From the NCBI GenBank assembly GCA_017431255.1, contig JAFRLI010000271.1, positions 1 to 51,063 of the forward strand: a stretch of 51,063 nucleotides of DNA, written 5' to 3'. This document shows, in pieces, positions 4,673-51,063 of the stretch. The notes under the pieces were generated by a model. The model was not told where the DNA came from and did not search any database. It saw nothing but the letters and a program-made list of their open reading frames with translations. Both the position numbers and the translations under genes were made by a program. Each line of letters begins with the position of its first letter. Position 1 is the first letter of the stretch. This stretch comes from Victivallales bacterium. Its GTDB lineage: Bacteria; Verrucomicrobiota; Lentisphaeria; Oligosphaerales; Oligosphaeraceae.

Positions 4673-4712
4673 AGGGCACACGGGGGACAGGGGGAGTTTC
4701 CCCTGGATCCCC

Positions 4713-16255: not shown

Positions 16256-16472
16256 AAGAGGAAATTGCAAAACCCGCCTTCCAAGCAGTGGCCGATGTAC
16301 TCCTGGATGGCTTTGCCATCGTAAACAGCACATTTTGCCATTTTGGAGGTTGTTTTGCAATGCTCTCGAAATCAAGTGTCCAACGAACGGTGTCAGGAGG
16401 CCAAAACTCCATTCACGGTTCGGAGCCTTCTGCCTGGAAGTCGCAGGATTTCAATCGAAAAAAGGAGGTTCC

Positions 16473-17597
16473 ATGGGACGACTAGATCATTGGGCAAAGG
16501 TATTTTTCCAGAGACCGGAGATTTTTGCAGCTCTCTTCAATGGGTATCTATTCCACGGGGAGGAAGTGCTTTCCGCCACAGAATTGGTACCCCTGAATAC
16601 GAAGGAGGTATTCACCAGCACAAAAAACAAAAGGACTTTTTTTGAACGGGAAAGGGATCTGCTTCAAAAGGTCACCTGCAAACGTGGAATGGACTGCACC
16701 TTTCTGCTGCTCGGGCTTGAGGCGCAATCCTTTCCGGATGCAAGCATGCCCGTTCGTTGCATGTTGTATGACGCCCTCAATTACGCCACGCAACTGAAAG
16801 AACTGCAGCCTGACCAACCAGACAACGCAAAGGCATTCCCACCAAGTTTTTCCGATGACATCCGTCTCGCTCCTGTCATCACCTTGGTGCTTGCCCTCAC
16901 GGACGCCCCCTGGCCACGGACAAGGGAACTTCACGACCTCCTGGCAATCCCAGACAAGAAACTCACACCGTTCATCCCGAACTACCGAATCAATCTCATC
17001 ACACCAAATACAATGACGGAGGATGACATCCATCCGTATGGCGGAGAACTGGAGGCCGTCCTTCTCACCGCCAAGAATGCCAGCAACAGAAAGGCTTTTC
17101 AGGAAGTCGTGGCGAGCCACACCATCTTCCAGAACATAAAAACGGATACCGCCCGCCTAATCATGGAAATCACTCAGCTGGATTTCCACATCAAGGACAA
17201 AAAGGAGAACATCAACATGACTGAACAAATGATCTCTTGGGAAGAATACTTCCAGCAAAAATGGCTCACAAAAGGACGCGAAGAAGGACTCACACAAGGC
17301 CTCACACAAGGACGTGAAGAAGGCCTCACAAAAGGACGTGAAGAAGGCCTCACAAAAGGACGTGAAGAAGGCCTCACAAAAGGACGTGAAGAAGGCCTCA
17401 CACAAGGACGTGAAGAAGGCCTCACAAAAGGACGTGAAGAAGGACAGCAAAAGGGGCAGCGTCGGGGTACCATCTCTACCTTGTTTGAACTCGGGAAACC
17501 ACCAGAGGAAGTTTGCACGTGGCTAATGGGTCATTTTTCCTTGACCGAACAGCAGGCAAAACAGGAGATCGCCGATTTTCAGGCGTCCCGTCATTAG
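16473..17597 (+). CDS. Rpn/YhgA-like (Transposase_31-type PD-(D/E)XK) recombination-promoting nuclease or putative transposase, with an expanded C-terminal repeat
   Basis: Start ATG 16473 with AAGGAGG 5 nt upstream. 'LLLGLEAQS' corresponds to the family's hhhEhQS nuclease motif. 'MPVRCMLYDA' and 'LAPVITLVLALTD' parallel RpnA's 'FRMMRY' and 'LPLVVPILFY'. The C-terminus carries (GREEGLTK)n, comparable to the EKGIEKGIQQGRQE tail of RpnA. Confidence 0.7.
   Translation: MGRLDHWAKVFFQRPEIFAALFNGYLFHGEEVLSATELVPLNTKEVFTSTKNKRTFFERERDLLQKVTCKRGMDCTFLLLGLEAQSFPDASMPVRCMLYDALNYATQLKELQPDQPDNAKAFPPSFSDDIRLAPVITLVLALTDAPWPRTRELHDLLAIPDKKLTPFIPNYRINLITPNTMTEDDIHPYGGELEAVLLTAKNASNRKAFQEVVASHTIFQNIKTDTARLIMEITQLDFHIKDKKENINMTEQMISWEEYFQQKWLTKGREEGLTQGLTQGREEGLTKGREEGLTKGREEGLTKGREEGLTQGREEGLTKGREEGQQKGQRRGTISTLFELGKPPEEVCTWLMGHFSLTEQQAKQEIADFQASRH
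17274..17444 (+). repeat. In-frame 24-bp tandem repeat (about 7 units plus one 12-bp half unit) inside the Rpn-like gene
   Basis: The unit is GGACGTGAAGAAGGCCTCACAAAA. Units 2-6 (17310-17429) are identical apart from one A/C position. It encodes GREEGLT(K/Q) repeats. Confidence 0.95.
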
Positions 17598-29982: not shown

Positions 29983-30024
29983 TCTGGTTTTCTGGTTTTC
30001 TCTAGGGTTCTAGAGGTTCTAGCC
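29983..30024. repeat. Short compound tandem repeat in the malic-enzyme leader or promoter region
   Basis: TCTGGTTT x2 (29983-29998), followed by CTAG-anchored 8-9-bp units CTAGGGTT / CTAGAGGTT / CTAGCC (CTAG at 30002, 30010 and 30019). A hairpin GCCGC-agtcaca-GCGGC follows. Confidence 0.8.
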
Positions 30025-30233
30025 GCAGTCACAGCGGCTCGTGACATGCATCCTAATATAAATATACCACCTTCCCGACATTTTGCACATCTGCCCACAC
30101 AAAAAAACTAACCCGCCATTTGTATGTCTCCAATCCCGTTGCTCCAACGGACGAGAATCCTTTTTAGAACCCGGAAAGAGCAATGGCACGTCCCGTAATG
30201 ACCTCGCCAGCGTAGCCCACGACCAGCGTGCAT

Positions 30234-38263: not shown

Positions 38264-39673
38264 ATGTTGTCATTTTACAATTCATTGTCGCATTTGGTGG
38301 AGGAGTTCAAGCCGTTGGTGGAGGGGAAAGTCGGGTTGTATACATGCGGCCCTACAGTGTACAACTTTGCGCACATTGGGAACTTCCGCTGCTATATGTT
38401 TGAAGACCTGCTGAAGCGGACCTTGCTGTACTTCGGGTACAAAGTCAAGCACGTAATGAACCTGACAGATGTCGACGACAAGACCATCCGCGGCTCCCAA
38501 GCTGCGGGGATTCCCCTCAACACCTACACCCGCAAGTACAAGGACGCCTTCTTTGCCGACATCAAAACCCTCCGCATTCTCCCGGCAAATGTCTATCCCG
38601 CCGCCACAGAGACCATCCCCGAAATGATTGCCCTCATCGAAAAACTCTTCGAGAAGGGGATTGCCTACCAGGCAGATGACAAATCGGTCTACTTCTCCAT
38701 CGCCAAATGGCCGTCCTATGGGCAACTCCAGAAGATCGACCGCGAAAACATGCGCGCTGGCGTTCGCATTAAAATGGACGAATACGCCAAGGACGCCGTG
38801 GCGGACTTCGCACTATGGAAGGCTTGGGACGAGGCTGACGGCGATGTCAAGTGGGATTCTCCCTGGGGTCCGGGTCGTCCTGGCTGGCACATCGAATGCT
38901 CCGCCATGTCCTCCAAGTACCTCGGCAAAACCTTTGACATCCATTGCGGCGGGTCCGACAATCTCTTCCCGCATCACGAAGACGAAATCGCCCAATCCGA
39001 GGCCGCCAACGGCTGCAAGTTCGTCAATTACTGGCTCCACTGCGCACACCTCATGGTGGACGGCACGAAGATGTCCAAATCCCTAGGCAACTTCTATACC
39101 CTCCGCGACATTCTGGAAAAAGGCTACAGCGGACGTGAAATCCGCTGGGTTCTCCTCTCCGCACAGTATCGCCAATCCCTGAACTTCTCCTTCAAGGCCC
39201 TGGAAGACGCACGCCTCGCACTCGCAAGGCTCGACGCCGTCCTCCAACGCCTCCAGGAAGCCACCAAATCCCCCGATGCCGGCGCCGATGACATCGCCCC
39301 CGCGCTCGCCAAAGCCGAAACCCAGTTCGCCGACGGTCTTGCCGACGATCTCAACATCTCCGTCTCCATCGCAGCACTCTTCGACCTCATCCGCGAATCC
39401 AACCGCCTCCTCGACGCCGCACAACTCGCCGGCAAACCCGCCCAAACCACCCTCGACCTCTTCCACAAATTCGATTCCGTCCTAGCAGTCTGCACACCCG
39501 ACCCCTCTGAAAAGCAGGACGTTCCCGAGGAAATCCAGCAACTCGCCGAACAACGCCAGGCCGCGCGCAAGGCAAAAGACTGGGCACGTGCCGACGCGAT
39601 TCGACAGGAACTCGACGCCAAGGGGTGGGTCATCGAAGACACTCCCAAAGGCCCGCATTTCAAGAGAAAGTAG
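38264..39673 (+). CDS. cysS: Cysteine--tRNA ligase
   Basis: Start ATG 38264 ('MLSFYNSLSH...'). HIGH motif 'AHIGNFR' and 'KMSKS' in 'GTKMSKSLGNF'. Confidence 0.93.
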   Translation: MLSFYNSLSHLVEEFKPLVEGKVGLYTCGPTVYNFAHIGNFRCYMFEDLLKRTLLYFGYKVKHVMNLTDVDDKTIRGSQAAGIPLNTYTRKYKDAFFADIKTLRILPANVYPAATETIPEMIALIEKLFEKGIAYQADDKSVYFSIAKWPSYGQLQKIDRENMRAGVRIKMDEYAKDAVADFALWKAWDEADGDVKWDSPWGPGRPGWHIECSAMSSKYLGKTFDIHCGGSDNLFPHHEDEIAQSEAANGCKFVNYWLHCAHLMVDGTKMSKSLGNFYTLRDILEKGYSGREIRWVLLSAQYRQSLNFSFKALEDARLALARLDAVLQRLQEATKSPDAGADDIAPALAKAETQFADGLADDLNISVSIAALFDLIRESNRLLDAAQLAGKPAQTTLDLFHKFDSVLAVCTPDPSEKQDVPEEIQQLAEQRQAARKAKDWARADAIRQELDAKGWVIEDTPKGPHFKRK

Positions 39674-39675
39674 AA

Positions 39676-40566
39676 ATGTCCGAAATCCGCGTCTTCAACC
39701 GCGAAACTCGCCAAATCGAAACCGAGAAGGTCCTCGGGGACTCTCTGATGCGCCTGGCCTACGAAACCCCGGCCAGAAGCGTCCTTTCCTGGCCTCTCTT
39801 CGGGACCTCTCTCTGTTCCCGCCTCCTCGGGAAATACGCCGATAGCACCCTCTCGCGTTCCCGCGTCGATTCCACCATCCGCAAGATGGAAATCCCCATG
39901 GAGGACTTTGAAGTTCCCGCAGGAGGTTTCCGCACCTTCAACGAGTTCTTCACTCGACGCGTCAAACCAGGCGCACGTCCCTTCCACGGCGACGGCCTCT
40001 GTTCTCCGGCAGATGGACGCCTCACCGTCTGGCAAACTCTCTCGCACGATACCTGCATTCCCGTCAAAGGAGCCTCCTTCACCGTTGCGGAACTTCTCGG
40101 TCCCCAAGGCAAGGACTACGCACGACGTTTCGAGGGCGGGTCCCTCTGCGTTTGCCGCCTCTGTCCGATCGATTATCATCGCTTCCACTTCCCCCTCGCC
40201 GGGACCCTTCTTGACGCCTGGCGCATTCGCGGGAAATACCATTCCGTGAACCCCATCGCGCTCGAACGAATGATAGACGTATTCACGAGCAACGTTCGGG
40301 AAGTGAAGATGCTCGAACTGGAAAAGGCGGGCCTTTGCGCGTTCATTCCCGTCGGAGCATTCGGGGTTGCCTCCATTGTGACCACCCACCAGGAGCGCGA
40401 GTTTCTGCGCGGAGACGAATGCGGCTATTTTTGCTTCGGCGGTTCCACCATCATCCTCGTCTTCGAACCCAACAAACTCCAATTTGCTCCCGATCTCATC
40501 CAGCACTCCGCCGCTGGCATGGAGTGCCTCGTCAAGGCCGGCGAACCCATCGCCTCGCTTCTTTAG
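39676..40566 (+). CDS. psd: Phosphatidylserine decarboxylase proenzyme
   Basis: Start ATG 39676, 2 nt after the cysS stop. 'DYHRFHFP' and the self-cleavage region 'FCFGGSTIILVF' (G-S-T) are PSD signatures. Confidence 0.88.
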   Translation: MSEIRVFNRETRQIETEKVLGDSLMRLAYETPARSVLSWPLFGTSLCSRLLGKYADSTLSRSRVDSTIRKMEIPMEDFEVPAGGFRTFNEFFTRRVKPGARPFHGDGLCSPADGRLTVWQTLSHDTCIPVKGASFTVAELLGPQGKDYARRFEGGSLCVCRLCPIDYHRFHFPLAGTLLDAWRIRGKYHSVNPIALERMIDVFTSNVREVKMLELEKAGLCAFIPVGAFGVASIVTTHQEREFLRGDECGYFCFGGSTIILVFEPNKLQFAPDLIQHSAAGMECLVKAGEPIASLL

Positions 40567-40654
40567 TGGTTAGTGGCTAGTGGTTAGTGGCTAGTGGCTA
40601 GTGGTTAGTGGCTAGTGGCTAGTGGTTAGTGGCTAGTGGTTAGTGGCTAGTGGT
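40564..40654. repeat. 7-bp microsatellite TAGTGGY x13, starting on the psd TAG stop codon
   Basis: Thirteen uninterrupted units cover 40564-40654 (91 bp). The Y pattern is T C T C C T C C T C T C T. The first TAG is the psd stop. Confidence 0.97.
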
Positions 40655-40911
40655 CGTGCCCCTAAGAGTTCCCTAAGCGTAGTGCCCCTAGGAGTTCCCT
40701 AGGCGTAGTGCCCCTAAGAGTTCCTTAAGCGTAGTGCCCCCAGGAGTTCTCTAGGCGTAGTGCCCCCAGGAGTTCCCTAGGCGTAGTGCCCCTAAGAGTT
40801 CCCTAAGCGTCGTGCCCCTAGGAGTTCCTTAAGCGTAGTGACCCTAGGAGTTCCCTAGGAGTCGTGCCCCTAGGAGTTCCCTAAGCGTCGTGCTCCTAAG
40901 CGTTGTGCCCC
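40655..40911. repeat. 26-bp minisatellite, about 9.8 units, contiguous with the 7-bp array
   Basis: Unit consensus GTGCCCCTARGAGTTCCCTARGCGTM, with unit starts at 40656, 40682, 40708, ... 40864. There is no spacer sequence between units. Each unit holds two CCTARG half-sites, including the palindromes CCTAGG and CTTAAG. Confidence 0.95.
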
Positions 40912-40932
40912 TTCTGCCACAAAATTCGCACA

Positions 40933-43984: not shown

Positions 43985-44476
43985 GTGGACGTATTTTCTT
44001 CTGACAACCAGCACCATGAGGCGATGATGCGCCTCGCCATCGAGGAGGCGCTTGCCGCCGCCGAAGCGGGCGAGGTTCCCGTCGGTGCCGTCATTGCCTG
44101 CGGGGGCGAAGTGGTTGCGCGGGCCCACAACTGCGTTGAGAGCACGTTGCAAGGCACGGCACATGCGGAACTGCTTGCCATTCAGGAGGCTTCGCGCCGA
44201 CTGGGAATGTGGCGGCTGGACGGATGCACGCTCTATGTCACGAAGGAACCCTGTGCGATGTGCGCCGGGGCAATGGTCAACTGCCGCGTCCCTGAACTTT
44301 TTTTCGGGTGTCCAGACCCAAAGACTGGCGCGGCGGGAGGCTTTCTGGACGTCACCGCCATGCCGGACGGCTTCCACACCGTCCGCACCACGGGCGGGCT
44401 TCTGGCGAGCGAATGCCTCGCCATTCTGCAAGATTTTTTCCGGAAACGAAGACAACAAGTCAAACAACAGCCATGA
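43985..44476 (+). CDS. tadA: tRNA adenosine(34) deaminase TadA
   Basis: CDA motifs 'HAELLAIQEA' and 'PCAMCAGAM'. The start is uncertain: GTG 43985 or ATG 44024 ('MMRLAIEEA'). Confidence 0.88.
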   Translation: MDVFSSDNQHHEAMMRLAIEEALAAAEAGEVPVGAVIACGGEVVARAHNCVESTLQGTAHAELLAIQEASRRLGMWRLDGCTLYVTKEPCAMCAGAMVNCRVPELFFGCPDPKTGAAGGFLDVTAMPDGFHTVRTTGGLLASECLAILQDFFRKRRQQVKQQP

Positions 44477-44489
44477 GGAGGAAACAAAA

Positions 44490-45482
44490 ATGGCATTTGA
44501 AAAAAGGGAACTGAAGAACGAACTGACCTGGTCGGTTTCTCGCGCCAATCTCTTCCAGGAGTGCCCGCGCGCCTACTACTACAACTATTACGGCTCCTGG
44601 GGCGGCTGGGACTTCAACGCTCCCGCCGAGGCACGCCTGCTCTACACCCTCAAGAACATCCAGACGATGATTCTCTGGGCCGGCGGAATTGTCCACGAAC
44701 TCATCAAGGGCGCACTCGAAAAAGCACGCGAAACAGGAGTCCTTCCCGACGTCCCTACCCTCCAGGAAGCCGCCAGCCAACTTATGAACTCCCAGTGGCT
44801 TGACTGCATCCACGGAAGGTGGCGCGAACGCCCGAAATCCACCAACCTCGATGAACTCTACTACGGCAACGGCAAGCAGTTCGGCACCCTCACCAGGCTC
44901 CCACGCTCCGCAACCGACCCCATCCGTGAACGCGTCCAGGAATGCCTCGCCAGTTTCGTTCATGCCCCCATCGTCCAGGAAATCCTCGCCACTCCCGCGC
45001 AGCAATGGGTCACCATCGATACCCTTGACACGTTCGAACTCGAAGGCATCAAAATCTACTGCGCCATCGACTTCGCATTCTACGACAAGGAGGGTTTCCT
45101 CAACATCATCGACTGGAAAACGGGCAACGAATACTCCGATACCCTACAGCACCAACTCGCCTGCTATGCGCTCTACGCCATGCAGAAATGGAACGTCCCC
45201 TTCGATAAAATTCGCCTTCAGGGAGTCATCCTCCGCGACGGAGGACGCACCTCCTTCCACAACATCACCCAAGGCATGCTCGACATGACCCGCAAGAAAA
45301 TCCTCATCAGCCACAAGGCAATGAAGGATATCCTTGCCGACCCGGACAACAATCTCGCCCAAGAGCAGGACTTCGAGCCGCGCCCCGCTGAACGGCATTG
45401 CCTCCGCTGCAACTTCCGACAGGTCTGCCCGCTCCTCGCCGATAAACTCGACGACCTGGTCATGCCCCCTTCCGAGGAGTAA
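44490..45482 (+). CDS. Cas4/AddB-like PD-(D/E)XK nuclease with a 4-Cys (putative Fe-S) motif
   Basis: The true start is ATG 44490 ('MAFEKRELKNELTWSVS'), with GAGGAGG 8 nt upstream. N-terminal Cys in 'FQECPRAYYYNYY'. Nuclease core 'YCAIDFAF...LNIIDWKTG' (D...DxK) followed by 'QHQLACYALY' (QxxxY). C-terminal 'CLRCNFRQVC' (CX2CX5C). Confidence 0.75.
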   Translation: MAFEKRELKNELTWSVSRANLFQECPRAYYYNYYGSWGGWDFNAPAEARLLYTLKNIQTMILWAGGIVHELIKGALEKARETGVLPDVPTLQEAASQLMNSQWLDCIHGRWRERPKSTNLDELYYGNGKQFGTLTRLPRSATDPIRERVQECLASFVHAPIVQEILATPAQQWVTIDTLDTFELEGIKIYCAIDFAFYDKEGFLNIIDWKTGNEYSDTLQHQLACYALYAMQKWNVPFDKIRLQGVILRDGGRTSFHNITQGMLDMTRKKILISHKAMKDILADPDNNLAQEQDFEPRPAERHCLRCNFRQVCPLLADKLDDLVMPPSEE

Positions 45483-45494
45483 CGGAGGTCCCCC

Positions 45495-48400
45495 GTGCTC
45501 CCCAGCGAACGCTTCGCCAACTGCTTCCCGCAGGAAATCCGGCACGGTGGAGAGGCTCTCGTCCCAAATGCCACACGCCTCTGGGGCGGCGATGAATCCA
45601 TCTCCCTTGAGTTTTCCGACGGCACCAACGCCTCCTTCCAACTCGAAAACAATCTCCTCGTGCCACACTGTTCCTGCGAAACCGCACTCGCAGGAAATCC
45701 CTGCACGCACCTTTGGTGCGCACTCCTACTCGCAGACAAGTTCCAGGACCTCGCCAAGGCTCTCAAACGCTCCGTTCCACGACGCCTCCACTTCCCCACC
45801 AACAACACCGAGGATTCCCCACGGCTCGAATACGATACGCCACGACGACGCAAAAAGCCCGAAGAGGAACTCAGTCCCGAAGCCGCCGAAGCGTTGAACT
45901 ATCTTGCAGCGCTCGCCCATGGAGTCCGAGTCCCCGAAACGCGTCCCGAGGTCGATTCCTCCTTAACCCAGGAAATCCTCTACGTTGTGCGTCCAGACAA
46001 GCAGCGTCCCGACCAGCGCACCTGCCCCATCGAAACCTGGTGGCGCACGCCTGCCGCTCCTGGTCAGAAACCTTCCGCATGCCGCCCATTCACCTGGGAG
46101 GCAGGGACCCCGCTACCCACGAAAATGGACGCCACCCTGCTGGGACTCCTCACGCCTTTCCGTGCAGCCCCGCCCGAACACCCCAACCTCCACCACGTTC
46201 CCGCCTCTTGCGAACAACTCTTCGAGGCTCTCATCGGCTTCCCGAATCTCCGCTGGGCTGACGCACGCGAGGGCACCATCCAAATGCACCCGCTCGCACT
46301 CTCGTTCGGGACGGCTGCAGATTTGCACATTGCCTGCCGCCCGCTGGTGGAATTGGATTTGTACGAGTTCACTTGCCAACTGGCACATACGGGGAAAGAC
46401 ATCCCCTTCTCAGAGGTGCGAATGCAGTGCCAGGCACCTGGACGCCCTGCCCCGCCCGCCTGGCTCCTCTGCCGAAACCAACTCCTTCGCGCCAATCTTC
46501 GACGCGCCGAGGAACTCTCCCAGCAATTCCTACTCCGTGGAACCCTCCGCCTCGACTACGCAACCTCCAACGCACTCTCCGCCTCACTCGCCACTCAAAC
46601 CGACCTCGACACCGATTCCTTCCCCGAAGCCCTGCGGCACTACCGCGAAGACGCGCCCCCCATCGGCCACCTCTACGTCCGCACCGCCCAATTCAAATAC
46701 CAGGGCCAGGAACAGCTCCACGCCGAACTCTCCTTCCAGTACGGAAACATTACCTGCGAAGAAAACGACCCCAACGACCGCATCCTCGACGGACGCGCAC
46801 TCATCCAGCGAGACCCCGAAGCCGAAGAGCATCTCCGGGATTCCCTCCGCAAACTCGGCTTCCGATACAACTCCCGCTCCTGGGCCGAGGAACTCGGCTG
46901 GAAACTCCTCCCCTCCCTCCTCGACAATGCGGTCATGGAACTCATCGGCCAGGGCTGGGAAGTCCGCGCCGAAGGGAAAACCTACCGCAAGCCCCAAACC
47001 AAACAGGCCGTCGTCTCCTCAGGAACCGATTGGTTCGACCTCAAATCCGGAATCTCCTTCGATGGAATGGAGGTCCCCCTCCCCACGTTGCTCGCCGCCG
47101 CCAAACAAGGACAGCACGCCGTCCGACTCGACGACGGGACCTACGGCATCCTCCCCCGCGAATGGCTCGAAAACTTCACCGTCCTCACCGAACTTGGGGA
47201 AGTCACTAGCGACCGCATCCGCCTCCGCGTCGAGCAGGCCGCGCTCGTCAACGCCATCCTCAACGACCAACTTGCCCATGCGGGCGGAACGCTTCAAGAG
47301 CGTCTGGAGGAGTTTGAACGCCTCGGCACCCCGCAGCCCGCCGATCCGCCGCATGGATTCCAGGCGACCTTGCGCCCCTACCAGCGTGTCGGTCTCGGCT
47401 GGCTTCTCGCCATGCAGAAGGCGGGCATGGGGGCATGTCTCGCCGATGACAGGGGCCTCGGCAAGACCATCCAGGTCCTCGCCGTCCTCGCCGGGCGCGC
47501 CCTTGAACCCAACCATACCCCCTCCCTCATCGTCATGCCGCGCTCCCTCCTCTTCAACTGGCAGGCGGAAGCGCAAAAGTTCGCACCCTGGCTCCGCGTC
47601 CGTATCCATCTCGGAAATGCACGCGACCTCTCCCCACGCACCCTCGCCTCCTGCGACCTCCTCCTCACTACCTACGGAACCCTTCGCAACGACGCCACGC
47701 GGCTCGCCAATGTCGATTTCGATTACTGCGTCCTGGATGAATCCCAGGCCATCAAAAACCCCGACAGCGCCACCGCGCGCGCCGCACGCTGCATCCGCGC
47801 ACGGCACCGCATTGCCATGACGGGAACCCCCATCGAAAACCACCTCGGCGAACTCTTCAGCCAACTCGATTTTCTCAATCCGGCCCTCTTCGGGAATCGC
47901 CGCCTCCCCCTCGCACCCTCTCCCAACTCCAATCGCGAAAACTCCGCCATTGAGCGAGTGCGCAAGGGTGTCCGTCCATTTCTGTTGCGTCGCACCAAGC
48001 AAGATGTCGCCAAGGATCTTCCTCCGAAGACGGAGCAGATTCTCTGGTGTGAAATGCCACCTGAGGATCTCGCTGAATACAACGACCTCCTGCACTACTA
48101 CCAGAAGGAACTCTCCGAAGCCGAATCCACAGGAATGCAGACCCTCGCCGCACTCACACGACTGCGCCAGGCCGCCTGTCACCCTGGACTCCTCAAGGAA
48201 AACCGCTTCCACGACTCCTCCGCAAAACTCGAAATCCTCCTCCAAAACCTCGACACCATTCTCGAGGCAGGAAACAAGGCACTCGTCTTCTCTCAATTCA
48301 CCTCCTTCCTCAAAATCATCCGCGCACGCCTCCAGGACGCCGGATACAACCCCTGCTACCTCGACGGCGAAACCAAGGACCGCGCCGCCGAAGTCGACGC

Positions 48401-48725
48401 CTTCCAAAACGATCCGGCGCGCCAGGTCTTCCTCATCTCCCTCAAGGCGGGCGGTGTCGGCCTCAACCTCACGGCAGCCTCCTACGTTTTCCTAATGGAC
48501 CCATGGTGGAATCCCGCAGCCGAGGCCCAGGCCATCGACCGCGCCTATCGCATCGGTCAGAAAAACCCCGTATTCGCGTACCGTATCATTACACGTTCCA
48601 CCATCGAGGAAAAGGTCTACAACCTCCAAAACGCCAAACGAAAACTCGCCTCCGCCATCATCGACCACGATACCGACTCCCCTGCCCCACTCTCCCGCAA
48701 AGACCTCCAGGCACTCCTCTTCTAG
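45495..48725 (+). CDS. SWIM zinc-finger SNF2-family helicase (YwqA-like architecture)
   Basis: 1076 aa. GTG start with GGAGG 6 nt upstream, 12 nt after the nuclease stop. SWIM motif 'CSCETALAGNPCTH' (CxCx9CxH). SNF2 motifs 'LADDRGLGKT', 'VLDESQAIKN', 'MTGTPIEN' and 'SLKAGGVGLNLTAASYVFLMDPWWNPAAEAQAIDRAYRIGQ'. Confidence 0.9.
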   Translation: MLPSERFANCFPQEIRHGGEALVPNATRLWGGDESISLEFSDGTNASFQLENNLLVPHCSCETALAGNPCTHLWCALLLADKFQDLAKALKRSVPRRLHFPTNNTEDSPRLEYDTPRRRKKPEEELSPEAAEALNYLAALAHGVRVPETRPEVDSSLTQEILYVVRPDKQRPDQRTCPIETWWRTPAAPGQKPSACRPFTWEAGTPLPTKMDATLLGLLTPFRAAPPEHPNLHHVPASCEQLFEALIGFPNLRWADAREGTIQMHPLALSFGTAADLHIACRPLVELDLYEFTCQLAHTGKDIPFSEVRMQCQAPGRPAPPAWLLCRNQLLRANLRRAEELSQQFLLRGTLRLDYATSNALSASLATQTDLDTDSFPEALRHYREDAPPIGHLYVRTAQFKYQGQEQLHAELSFQYGNITCEENDPNDRILDGRALIQRDPEAEEHLRDSLRKLGFRYNSRSWAEELGWKLLPSLLDNAVMELIGQGWEVRAEGKTYRKPQTKQAVVSSGTDWFDLKSGISFDGMEVPLPTLLAAAKQGQHAVRLDDGTYGILPREWLENFTVLTELGEVTSDRIRLRVEQAALVNAILNDQLAHAGGTLQERLEEFERLGTPQPADPPHGFQATLRPYQRVGLGWLLAMQKAGMGACLADDRGLGKTIQVLAVLAGRALEPNHTPSLIVMPRSLLFNWQAEAQKFAPWLRVRIHLGNARDLSPRTLASCDLLLTTYGTLRNDATRLANVDFDYCVLDESQAIKNPDSATARAARCIRARHRIAMTGTPIENHLGELFSQLDFLNPALFGNRRLPLAPSPNSNRENSAIERVRKGVRPFLLRRTKQDVAKDLPPKTEQILWCEMPPEDLAEYNDLLHYYQKELSEAESTGMQTLAALTRLRQAACHPGLLKENRFHDSSAKLEILLQNLDTILEAGNKALVFSQFTSFLKIIRARLQDAGYNPCYLDGETKDRAAEVDAFQNDPARQVFLISLKAGGVGLNLTAASYVFLMDPWWNPAAEAQAIDRAYRIGQKNPVFAYRIITRSTIEEKVYNLQNAKRKLASAIIDHDTDSPAPLSRKDLQALLF

Positions 48726-48851
48726 ATGTGCTAGAGGGGCTAGATGTGCTAGATGGGCTAGATGGGCTAGATGTGCTAGATGGGCTAGATGTGCTAGATG
48801 GGCTAGATGGGCTAGATGTGCTAGATGTGCTAGATGTGCTAGATGGGCTAG
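48722..48851. repeat. 9-bp tandem array CTAGATGKG x14 (plus a partial unit), starting on the SNF2 TAG stop codon
   Basis: Units start at 48722, 48731, ... 48839 with no indels. Variants are CTAGATGTG and CTAGATGGG, plus one CTAGAGGGG. The TAG of every unit is in frame with the SNF2 stop at 48723-48725. Confidence 0.97.
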
Positions 48852-48984
48852 CAGCACCAGGTTTTGCAGGGCCGCGCTCCGAGCGGCCCAAGAGTGTGGC
48901 AAACGCGAGGAAAGGCAGGGTGCCTGACCATGGGGCTCGCATACACGCAGCCCTGCAAAACATAGTGCACAGGAGCCAGGGCAT
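48852..48984. other. Unique 133-bp core between the inverted arrays, carrying nested inverted repeats
   Basis: 12-bp perfect inverted repeat GTTTTGCAGGGC (48861-48872) / GCCCTGCAAAAC (48950-48961), 77 nt apart. Inner hairpin GGGCCGC-gctccga-GCGGCCC (48869-48889). Confidence 0.85.
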
Positions 48985-49206
48985 CTAGGGCTTCTAGCCC
49001 ATCTAGCCCCTCTAGCCCCTCTAGCCCCTCTAGCCCATCTAGCCCATCTAGCCCATCTAGCCCATCTAGCCCATCTAGCCCCTCTAGCCCCTCTAGCCCA
49101 TCTAGCCCATCTAGCCCCTCTAGCCCATCTAGCCCCTCTAGCCCATCTAGCCCCTCTAGCCCATCTAGCCCCTCTAGCCCATCTAGCCCATCTAGCCCCT
49201 CTAGCC
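48985..49206. repeat. 9-bp tandem array CTAGCCCMT x~24.7; the reverse complement of the left array, ending on the recombinase TAG stop codon
   Basis: Units start at 48985, 48994, ... 49192 and there is a partial unit at 49201-49206. CCCATCTAG is the reverse complement of the left-array unit CTAGATGGG. The recombinase stop (reverse complement of 49201-49203) lies in the last unit, and every unit gives an in-frame TAG on the minus strand. Confidence 0.97.
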
Positions 49207-50916
49207 TTTCCAGAAGTCCATGCTGGCCAAGTGGGCGAGGAGTGTTGCGTGTTCCGTACTTGAGGGGAAGAGATAGTTTACCTGAATGAGGCAGTCCTGA
49301 ATCGTGGTAGGCGGTTGTTTTCCACGCCGGGGCAGAATCCGAAAGGAAAACTTTGGAAAGTTCCTCGTACTCCCGAGAAGGACCCGTGGAAGGCTAAGGA
49401 TTCCATAATGGGTATGGATATCCAGATGGTCCTCAAAACAATGGATTTTGGAAACCGCGCGATGCAGCAATGTACGAAAACTCTCTTCCGAGAGTTGGTT
49501 GTCCAAAATGCGTTGCAACGTTTTCAAGGCATTGGCGTTGTCTTGTGCCTGGGAAGCCTGATGCGTCAGCAGGACGATTTCATTCAGCAGGGTCGTTTTG
49601 CGTTCCTGCAGATGCTGAAAAGCCGCATAGTATGCGATGCGAGAGGTTTCGTTTTCCACAAAAGAATCCACCAAATCGCCGATTTTTCCCTCTATTTCTT
49701 GCAATTCAGACTTCGTTTCCTCCAAATGAGCCTGAATCCGTTCACTGCTTTGACACTTTACACTGTCCAGGAAAAGCGCCAATGGAAGGACAGGAAGAAC
49801 AGCCTCACGCAACCCCGTAAACTCCTGCGATGACCTTACAAGCGTAATATTCACGCGCGACTTGCCGCATTGTTTGTCATGTCGCACATTCACCCCTTGC
49901 AGACAACTGTAGCAGATTTTCCCAGATTCCCGCAGCACAGACATGCGGCTTCCACAATTCCCACAATACAACAATCCTGAAAAAGGATGCTGGGCACGGT
50001 GTCTCGCATTGTCCCCCCCATGCGAGGCATTCACGATTTCATTCGCACGGTGCCACTCCTCAAACGTCACGATTTCCTTGCCTTCCATCTGCTTGGCAGG
50101 AACCAGAACCCCATGCGAATCATACATATACCCACAATAGAACGGATTCGCAATGATATGCCGCCAACTGGTGTCGTAGAAACACTTGCCAGAATGCCGT
50201 CCACGAAATCGCGTGTTCATCTCCCGCAACAAATCCGCATATTTGGCGCGATGAAGCACCTGTTCATACACAAAGCGAATCACCTCCACCGCTTCCGGAA
50301 TCACTTCAATTCTCTTCTCCTTGCCTCCCAAATACCGAATGCCGAACATCTTCGGTTGCGTACAATAGTATCCCGAATCCCGCAAACGCGCCAACGCTTT
50401 CTTGGACTTCTCGCGCGTTATCTTGATCTGATTGTCATTCACTTGAGACTGAATGCTCGATACCAGTGCGTCCGTAAACTTCTGGAAATCAATCGTCCCC
50501 TCCTTGAGACTCACCAATTCCACGCGACTGGCAAGCAGGCGATGGTTCACATATGCCTGCAAAAAACTGTTCAGGACTGGACGGTACAATCGCGTCAAAT
50601 CATACACGAGAAGGCAGTCCATCTGCGAAAGCATCTCCAGAACCTGCCCCAAGCCAGCACGATACCGCTTGCCTGTGGTATGGGAACGCAACCACTCCGC
50701 TAGCGCTTCATCCATCTCCGCAAGTGACTCCGCGCCCGTCGGATACAAGCGACCTGGGGTATTTGCATCTGCATATACCCCAATCACATCCCATCCATGG
50801 GATTCCGCGTAAACACGACACGCTTCTTCCTGCATCCCCAGCGATTCACTATCTTCTTCTTTTCCACTGGACTGACGACAGTAAATCACCGCTCGCTTTA
50901 AAACCCGGCTCGACAT
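49201..50916 (-). CDS. Large serine recombinase (resolvase/invertase N-domain, recombinase domain and zinc ribbon)
   Basis: The start is taken as ATG 50916 ('MSSRVLKRAVIYCRQSSGKEEDS...', catalytic-Ser region). Contains 'GYYCTQPKMFGIRY' and the zinc ribbon 'CGNCGSRM...CYSC', followed by a coiled-coil tail. Spot counts of 60-nt lines give about 47-48% G+C here against about 68% in one spot-counted 60-nt line of the adjacent SNF2 gene. Confidence 0.85.
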   Translation of the reverse strand: MSSRVLKRAVIYCRQSSGKEEDSESLGMQEEACRVYAESHGWDVIGVYADANTPGRLYPTGAESLAEMDEALAEWLRSHTTGKRYRAGLGQVLEMLSQMDCLLVYDLTRLYRPVLNSFLQAYVNHRLLASRVELVSLKEGTIDFQKFTDALVSSIQSQVNDNQIKITREKSKKALARLRDSGYYCTQPKMFGIRYLGGKEKRIEVIPEAVEVIRFVYEQVLHRAKYADLLREMNTRFRGRHSGKCFYDTSWRHIIANPFYCGYMYDSHGVLVPAKQMEGKEIVTFEEWHRANEIVNASHGGDNARHRAQHPFSGLLYCGNCGSRMSVLRESGKICYSCLQGVNVRHDKQCGKSRVNITLVRSSQEFTGLREAVLPVLPLALFLDSVKCQSSERIQAHLEETKSELQEIEGKIGDLVDSFVENETSRIAYYAAFQHLQERKTTLLNEIVLLTHQASQAQDNANALKTLQRILDNQLSEESFRTLLHRAVSKIHCFEDHLDIHTHYGILSLPRVLLGSTRNFPKFSFRILPRRGKQPPTTIQDCLIQVNYLFPSSTEHATLLAHLASMDFWKG

Positions 50917-51063
50917 ATAGATTCCCCTTGAGTGGCATAAGTTAAGTCCCAAGATGATACAACACACAATGTATCACTTGGTTCCGCGTTTTGCCACTCC
51001 CCCACCCATTTTTTATTCTGTTTCCACAGATTTGGGGAATGGTGCCAGCGCAAACACTAGATA

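Follow-up and report, generated by a model that had tools for sequence, protein, structure and literature searches.

Repetitive extragenic palindromes (REPs) with a GTAG tag lie between convergent or unidirectional open reading frames (ORFs), occur as inverted dimers, and in many cases provide the ORFs that flank them with a TAG stop codon (Di Nocera et al. 2013, PMC3733652). In Mycobacterium, the ends of mycobacterial interspersed repetitive units (MIRUs) overlap adjacent genes, according to a later summary (PMC3184786) of Supply et al. 1997. Here, we describe a locus that resembles both systems in a contig of a Victivallales bacterium (JAFRLI010000271.1), the whole of which (51,063 bp) was analyzed and is hereafter called the window. 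Two inverted arrays of a 9-bp repeat, anchored on the palindrome CTAG, were found between the convergent genes of an SNF2-family helicase and a large serine recombinase, and each array starts on the stop codon of the gene next to it. The inverted CTAG arrays are real and statistically overwhelming; CTAGAKGKK occurs 38 times in the window versus 0.86 expected.

GTAG-tagged REPs and variable-number tandem repeats (VNTRs) of the MIRU type are the closest described systems, but the locus shows the full set of features of neither and is therefore a member of neither. Like REPs and bacterial interspersed mosaic elements (BIMEs), which sometimes form tandem copies too, it is lineage specific and extragenic, lies 3' of genes, folds into a larger structure as an inverted dimer, and derives stop codons from a tetranucleotide containing TAG. 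However, the REP/BIME unit is a stem-loop of 20–40 bp with a GTAG or CGTC tag, whereas the unit here is a 9-bp sequence, palindromic only in CTAG, that forms long head-to-tail arrays and reads GCTAGA or TCTAGC; hairpins are confined to the junction and the core described below. Three array-junction copies were found, and no REP-associated tyrosine transposase (RAYT) or Y1 transposase was detected among the window ORFs scanned. With the MIRU/VNTR loci of Mycobacterium the locus shares intergenic head-to-tail repeats that overlap gene ends, unit variants, and slippage-like copy number. MIRUs, however, have units of 40–100 bp, contain small ORFs, and lie inside operons, whereas here a 9-bp unit of a recurring family is inverted around a hairpin between convergent genes. 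As short head-to-tail units with 0% indels, the arrays are built like a minisatellite.

The left array (48722–48851, + strand) consists of 14.4 units of CTAGATGKG, and the right array (48982–49206, − strand) of 25.0 units that read CCCMTCTAG on the + strand. Both have a period of 9 and 0% indels in Tandem Repeats Finder (TRF), with 90% matches (consensus CTAGATGGG) and 92% matches, respectively. These values agree with a first-pass annotation of the window, which had counted 14 units from one nucleotide before the SNF2 TAG and about 24.7 units ending on the recombinase TAG. The left arm comprises seven copies of CTAGATGTG, six of CTAGATGGG, one of CTAGAGGGG, and one partial unit; the right arm comprises 13 copies of CTAGCCCAT, ten of CTAGCCCCT, and two degenerate units. 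The GTG variant is private to the left arm, and the unit lists bear out the earlier suggestion that separate minor variants reflect independent expansion of each arm. The arms are reverse-complementary at 88–92% over 130–139 nucleotides (nt) in many registers, as had been proposed when they were described as inverted copies of one unit.

The SNF2 stop codon (TAG, 48723–48725) sits within the first CTAG (48722), and the recombinase stop codon (CTA at 49201–49203 on the + strand) sits within the last. Both proteins end at the alignment column of their homologs, which for the recombinase was established in an alignment with seven of them. Thus, the stops are native and not made by the arrays, and neither gene is truncated; both reassignment of TAG and truncation by an inserted element were ruled out on these grounds. 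In-frame TAG codons do recur behind both genes (15 for SNF2 and 25 for the recombinase, with the gene's own stop counted in each case), but the idea that this amber ladder is a selected feature was not sustained. Since the 9-bp unit itself contains a stop, the ladder is a by-product, and the native stop already lies in the first unit. CTAG is rare outside the arrays (30 occurrences in 51 kb, of which 19 are within genes, six on stop codons, and five intergenic); stop codons thus hold 6 of the 11 CTAGs in permissive DNA, and array starts on stops are to be expected if arrays were seeded wherever such DNA contains CTAG. A CRISPR locus was ruled out as no spacers are present, and a DnaA-box or iteron identity was rejected, by inspection only, as the unit is unsuited. 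TAG is the commonest stop codon in the window (13 of 31 curated genes).

Between the arms lies a core of 133 bp (48852–48984). The first-pass annotation gave the same length and called the core unique; it is, however, not featureless, being an imperfect palindromic hairpin with a junction motif that recurs in a second contig (L075, see below). For the core, RNA folding predicts a minimum free energy (MFE) of −58.2 kcal/mol for the + strand (z = −2.5) and of −65.3 kcal/mol for the − strand (z = −4.7). Its outer stem pairs GGTTTTGCAGGGC (48861–48872 on the + strand; 48950–48961 on the − strand) with GCCCTGCAAAAC. The stem motif GTTTTGCAGGGC is also present in L075, and the left 47 nt (48840–48878 region) form a junction module that recurs after the L075 array. 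Arrays and core together make a 485-bp palindrome. A 531-nt region folds as a single hairpin both as RNA (−317.7 kcal/mol, z = −15.3) and as DNA (−173 kcal/mol, z = −14.9), in keeping with the earlier proposal that a stem of more than 100 bp could form.

L075 is an independent ENA contig of 2,644 bp that encodes exactly the recombinase protein of the window. Its first base is the last base of the window (TATCTAG in recombinase orientation, CTAGATA on the + strand), and the two contigs are 100% identical over 1,972 nt (49092–51063), which comprise 147 nt upstream, the gene, and 12 units. The first difference is at 49091, the variable base of the 13th unit from the recombinase stop and 109 nt past that stop; the far flanks differ, so that the two arrays may not represent one locus. 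The array behind the recombinase has 16 units (144 bp) in L075 versus 25 in the window and is followed by CTGGTA-CAGGTTTTGCAGGGCCGCGCT, which is homologous to the junction between left arm and core in the window (84.6% over 39 nt by blastn; local alignment score 51 on the + strand vs. 27 on the other). Beyond this junction, L075 contains short arrays and promoter-like boxes and then reaches a 16S ribosomal RNA (rRNA) gene, of which it includes the first 54 nt. This upstream stretch (2032–2222) contains a 24-mer in three copies, 6.6 copies of TTTCCGGGCGT, and two promoter-like boxes of the form CTTGCAAAA..TACATTAA. The array-to-junction arrangement is thus present in three copies, of which the window has two that face each other and L075 has the third.

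The anatomy of the module, namely a stop codon embedded in CTAG, a 9-bp minisatellite, and a hairpin junction with GTTTTGCAGGGC, is a robust result and is seen in at least three copies. The lineage that bears the repeat family is a gut or rumen bacterial lineage. We tentatively favor, at somewhat less than an even chance, the reading that two copies of a dispersed repeat module of gene ends, typical of the lineage, lie tail to tail at the locus. Each module would start on the gene's own amber stop inside the palindromic CTAG, continue as a slippage-prone minisatellite of CTAGAKGKG that is G-rich on the sense strand of the gene, and close with a conserved junction (CTRG..GTTTTGCAGGGCYGCG) that leads into a GC hairpin. 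With one module after SNF2 and one after the recombinase, the facing junctions would pair into the palindromic core and the arrays into the long stem. The arrays may have been seeded at CTAG stops and then expanded by replication slippage. At the RNA level, a duplex of about 130 bp could form at the 3' end of each convergent transcript, where it might serve as a structural transcript end or a barrier to read-through and possibly as a substrate of RNase III. At the DNA level, the inverted repeats that appear to bracket a ~2-kb recombinase cassette (with the right arm 3' and CTAGATA 5' of it) might be recombinogenic, which could account for the different flanks that two assemblies give to the same cassette. 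Most likely, the effects of the arrays are structural (3' duplex, G-rich sense tails, and recombinogenic DNA repeats), and nothing shows selection on them.

To examine how widely such arrays occur, we searched for runs of three CTAGAKGKG units in 185,579 species genomes and obtained 21 loci. Seven are from five metagenome-assembled genomes (MAGs) of Lentisphaerota, a small phylum, and four are from Prevotella/Bacteroidaceae MAGs. The Lentisphaerota arrays (CTAGAGGGG, CTAGAGGTT, CTAGCCCCT, CCCATCTAG) are part of mosaic intergenic repeats with GC hairpins next to them, and frequently a contig end or an N gap adjoins them. A mosaic intergenic repeat common to two Lentisphaeria MAGs was observed at L007 (700–1000 and 1780–1900), L021 (1–200), and L017 (200–330); its order is a GCCCGGCAAGCCGGGC hairpin, CACAGAGAGCACAGAGAGG, CTAG 9-mers, and a CTAG-tagged hairpin, CCCCCCGCTTGCGGGGGG. 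This shared sequence hints at a CTAG-tagged, REP-like family in Lentisphaerota. Arrays directly after native stops were also found in unrelated genomes, behind purE in L011 and hemN in the high-GC L052, but many cases of an ORF ending at an array in high-GC loci are trivial, the array giving the first stop in a long open frame. In metagenomes, 31 heterogeneous loci with at least four units were detected, including coding repeats, and no general rule emerged. One CTAG 9-mer locus of another organism (~40% GC) is represented in three metagenomes with 15 (L062), at least 23 (L061), and at least 11 (L050) units, a variation that, judged from these sequences, directly indicates VNTR behavior of such arrays. 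No paper containing the 18-mers was found in the literature, nor anything relevant on repeats of Lentisphaerae.

Two further arrays are present within the window. The first (40564–40912) consists of 13 copies of TAGTGGY that start on the TAG of psd (39625–40566), followed by 9.3 copies of a 26-mer (GTGCCCCTAGGAGTTCCCTAAGCGTA) on CCCTAGG/CCCTAAG, and lies upstream of an operon for an SBP_bac_3/ATP-binding cassette (ABC) transporter. The second is a mini-array (30001–30025; CTAGGGTT CTAGAGGTT CTAGCC) of three CTAGRGGTT units between a GH2-like and a malic enzyme gene, and its unit CTAGAGGTT is shared with the long arrays of the Lentisphaeria genome MAG281 (L005, L017). By contrast with this recurrence of the unit, no CTAG array follows the SNF2 gene at the two orthologous loci (L073 and L074), which rules out conservation downstream of SNF2 orthologs, and none is present at 13 loci of recombinase homologs (among L026–L036 and L068–L072), on which grounds a conserved association with the recombinase family was rejected. 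The lack of arrays at orthologous loci implies that they are recent and typical of the lineage rather than of the flanking gene families. Nor did tblastn detect a recombinase homolog near the Lentisphaerota CTAG arrays. According to the first-pass annotation, occurrence of identical arrays at many unrelated intergenic sites with no link to gene ends or mobile elements would mark them as a generic microsatellite; arrays of the same units do occur at many unrelated intergenic sites, yet they often touch gene ends.

A purely local origin would dispense with any dispersed family and any link to the recombinase: a terminator-like hairpin with CTAGATGGG and CCCATCTAG at the base of its stem would have been expanded in place on each side. 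The private variant of each arm is compatible with such a history, as are the recent age suggested by the array-free SNF2 orthologs and the other short convergent gap of the window (4673–4712), which is a GC hairpin abutting a CTAG stop. Nevertheless, we regard it as highly improbable in view of the paralogous array-junction in L075 and of the presence of the unit family at 30001–30025, probably at the contig end, and in other Lentisphaerota MAGs.

Several observations weigh against the dispersed gene-end module. CTAGAKGKG was required by the search pattern, and the sharing of units across genomes is therefore partly an ascertainment effect. "Dispersed" rests on the three array-junction copies and on the behavior of contig ends; no second copy of the whole core was found in the window or in 76 loci, only the 47-nt junction recurring. 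All three array sites of the CTAGAKGKG type in the 51-kb window cluster near the recombinase, so that a role specific to the cassette fits at least as well as a generic one. The arm variants give U-C and A-G mismatches and never G-U pairs, and hence there is no signature of selection for stem pairing. A role at transcript ends is a prediction from folding. In consensus scans of 48300–49700, neither a hairpin with a U tract (both strands) nor a sigma-70-like promoter was detected; the canonical bidirectional intrinsic terminator that had been suggested is thus not supported, AUAGUGCAC and CUGGUGCUG being the sequences that come after the hairpin on the two strands. A search of Rfam 15 gave no gathering-level match in the window, and permissive matches in 48600–49350 were chance-like, with best E values of 2.8–7.9.

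It is also conceivable that the arrays are selected, as binding sites for a dimeric CTAG-recognizing protein (ribbon-helix-helix, TrpR-like, or centromere-like), as an amber ladder against read-through, or as a G-quadruplex (G4) terminator, although we give this an almost negligible likelihood. The palindromic CTAG recurs at a fixed spacing of 9 bp, and arrays start on the stops of three genes here and of hemN in the unrelated L052. The right arm, which reads CTAGAKGGG on the sense strand of the recombinase (absolute G4Hunter score 1.22), supplies five of the nine canonical G4 motifs of the window, but the left array, the G-rich sense-strand 3' tail of SNF2, scores a weak 0.65. Moreover, the psd array has a different unit, nothing is conserved at orthologous loci, a ladder of TAG only would add little against an amber suppressor, and neither partition genes nor a candidate gene for an array-binding protein were found among the window ORFs scanned. 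The analogy with iterons and centromeres drawn in the first-pass annotation is not supported. Plasmid R1 parC likewise has two clusters of short repeats around a core, but these are direct clusters of five 11-bp iterons around the par promoter beside parM/parR, whereas the clusters here are inverted, surround no promoter-like site, have no partition genes among the same ORFs, and lie at a chromosomal gene end.

The two assemblies disagree about the neighbor of the recombinase. The right arm (225 bp) can be divided into an outer array (49092–49206, − strand) of 12 units plus the terminal CTAG with the recombinase stop, identical in L075, and an inner array on the core side (48985–49091, − strand) of about 13 units including the two degenerate ones, which is specific to the window and absent from L075. 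The arm is probably longer than a typical short read. Given this length and the divergence within the arm, both the copy number and the link between SNF2 and the recombinase are insecure. At the other end, the window closes with CTAGATA (51057–51063, + strand), 147 nt upstream of the recombinase ATG, which is probably either a degenerate unit that opens a third array or a boundary of the recombinase cassette. The start base common to L075 and the window suggests a real branch point of one of these two kinds, and the fact that both contigs stop after 7 nt of array-like 5' sequence suggests real heterogeneity there.

Three explanations of the conflict may be considered. There may be one locus in which SNF2 and 14 units are followed by the core, then by 25 units and the recombinase, and then by a third array, a junction, and 16S; here, the cassette is bracketed by inverted arrays and L075 may represent a flipped state or a mis-join. 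Second, a mobile cassette with 12 units may have landed in arrays at two places. Third, the window may have been mis-joined within the right arm. The agreement over 109 nt past the stop resembles a boundary at 103–105 nt in relatives of the recombinase and thus favors one of the first two, but short reads with an anchor in unique sequence could support agreement over about the same distance. The division of 25 units into 12 and 13 without overlap favors the third, together with the L075 array of 144 bp, which could be spanned by overlapping reads of an assumed length of ~150 nt.

If the contig was mis-joined or collapsed in the right arm, the true place of the recombinase and its 12 units would be upstream of the rRNA operon, and the palindrome on the SNF2 side would end in an array whose far end is undefined. 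The pattern of units also switches at the point of division, from alternating to runs, in MAG281, L002, and L012 arrays are found where contigs end or N gaps lie, and SNF2 is recorded from NCBI only whereas the recombinase is recorded from NCBI and ENA. However, we consider such an artifact unlikely. The arrest of both contigs after 7 nt of 5' sequence points to heterogeneity rather than to a run into a repeat, and imperfect arms with private variants are unlike hairpin chimeras. In addition, an artifact would touch the join only; it would spare the left arm together with the core, no fewer than 13 inverted units, and an array that starts on the recombinase stop.

A different possibility, which we regard as less likely than the gene-end module, is that the arrays are terminal or attachment repeats of a mobile or invertible cassette of ~2 kb that contains only the recombinase. 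The enzyme, or RecA acting on inverted arrays, would recombine the ends with other CTAG arrays; the right arm would be a hybrid of 12 cassette units and 13 host units, and the left arm with its hairpin would be a host target or a solo end. Consistent with this, the identical 1,972 nt are joined to SNF2 in the window and to the region upstream of rrn in L075, with the same base at the 5' break, so that the early suggestions of a recombination hotspot or an element terminus gain support. GC content drops to 0.51 over the cassette, which has inverted array-like flanks (the right arm and CTAGATA). We identified ~90 homologs of the recombinase, nearly all on contigs of 1.8–3 kb. At homolog loci L026–L036 and L068–L072, the ~2-kb units split prepilin-type DUF1559 (SBP_bac_10/N_methyl) genes within the conserved motif FTLIELLVV|IAIIAILAAMLLPAL; they are bounded by a multi-copy repeat, the prepilin-type N-terminal coding sequence, and have variable 3' partners. 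Identical recombinase genes (P0034) have the same gene body upstream and different N-terminal/promoter modules between samples. In two groups of relatives with identical genes, the copies remain identical for 103 and 105 nt past the stop, respectively, and then diverge. From their sequences, the prepilin-splitting units might represent a shufflon-like system or else a mobile cassette that targets repeats; no description of them was found, though no dedicated literature search was made.

On the other hand, none of the 13 loci of recombinase homologs carries CTAG arrays, the CTAG arrays of Lentisphaerota have no recombinase nearby, and the point of divergence may be technical, for the reason of read support given above. 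The 5' array is deduced from seven bases only, and no inverted repeat extends into the cassette past CTAG. To our knowledge, a palindromic TA crossover is unusual for large serine recombinases, which also counts against the cassette. The idea that insulation of host from mobile DNA characterizes this recombinase family is not supported either, given the 13 array-free loci. The region had no BLAST match in collections of phages and plasmids, and the 5' end of the cassette had none among viral sequences; a match of the junction motif in viral_contigs was dismissed as chance, being within a coding region. No transfer RNA (tRNA) or transfer-messenger RNA was detected in a scan of the window, which leaves no tRNA-type attachment site.

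Hin/Gin/Cin switches and TnpX/TndX transposons resemble the locus in that a serine recombinase gene is flanked by inverted repeats, and here the gene is joined to two flanks. Their sites, however, are single and of ~26–50 bp, whereas tandem arrays of 100–225 bp are present here. The homologs of the window recombinase target the prepilin-type N-terminal coding sequence and not CTAG arrays, so that the type of site is not conserved among homologs, and any recombination at the present locus is putative. Eukaryotic Foldback (FB) transposons also have long inverted arms of short tandem repeats, but they are multi-copy and create target-site duplications, whereas no second whole copy was found here. 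For a foldback element or a miniature inverted-repeat transposable element, CTAG at both ends would look the same as the array unit itself. An improbable extension would go further: the ~2-kb minimal cassettes might encode Lentisphaerota-specific large serine recombinases that recombine with multi-copy repeats, the target being CTAG arrays here and the DUF1559 N-terminal coding sequence in most relatives. Crossover might then occur at the central TA of CTAG, and the arrays would act as tandem, multi-register attachment sites that move or flip the cassette between the 3' end of SNF2 and the region upstream of rrn.

Other arrays of 9–11 bp with unrelated units were observed within a few hundred bp of recombinase homologs, in L068 (1930–2030), L071 (573–700), L028 (2389–2426), and L032 (3560–3610). 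Their units are TATAAGTCT/TATCCGGCC, TACGGACTGA (with inverted GTCCGTA copies), TCGGACCAG, and TTCTGTTCATG.

The SNF2-family gene (45495–48725, + strand) encodes 1076 amino acids with the Pfam domains SNF2-rel_dom, Helicase_C, and SNF2_assoc. Its product is at most 54% identical to any other protein, and its named relatives are from Lentisphaeria. It is preceded by a gene for a PD-(D/E)XK nuclease (PDDEXK_1), and relatives (L073 and L074) have conserved this pair (44052–48725); by eye only, what follows SNF2 in L073 resembles a tRNA gene. The recombinase gene (P0024; 49201–50916, − strand) encodes a full-length protein of 571 amino acids with Resolvase, Recombinase, and Zn_ribbon_recom domains.

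The window, which is the entire contig, has the gene content of an ordinary chromosome, including DnaK, GroEL, HtpG, FtsH, LptD, CysS, Psd, glycosidases, and an ABC transporter (Pfam and ORF scan). The genome is compact, judged by its short intergenic gaps (~40 bp typically). Both GATC (49 observed vs. 230 expected) and AGCT (10 vs. 89) are depleted across the window, and these counts suggest restriction-modification pressure. Within the ORF at 16335–17597, a coding 24-bp repeat (17296–17443, 6.2 copies) translates as (GLTKGREE)n and occupies the C-terminal part of a Transposase_31 (YhgA/Rpn-like) protein.

The families of intergenic repeats in Lentisphaerota are almost undescribed. If the gene-end module reading is true, the present family would be a CTAG-tagged counterpart of GTAG-tagged REPs, which settles on amber stops, expands into a minisatellite, and gives rise to palindromes several hundred bp long where two genes converge. 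Such arrays break or mis-join metagenome assemblies, as illustrated here by one recombinase with two neighbors, and they inflate apparent 3' structure, which is relevant to the annotation of transcript ends. They also mark sites where gene neighborhoods beside rRNA operons may be reshuffled by recombination. If, instead, the arrays prove to be the ends of a recombinase cassette, the locus would offer a tractable case of a serine recombinase with tandem-repeat targets.

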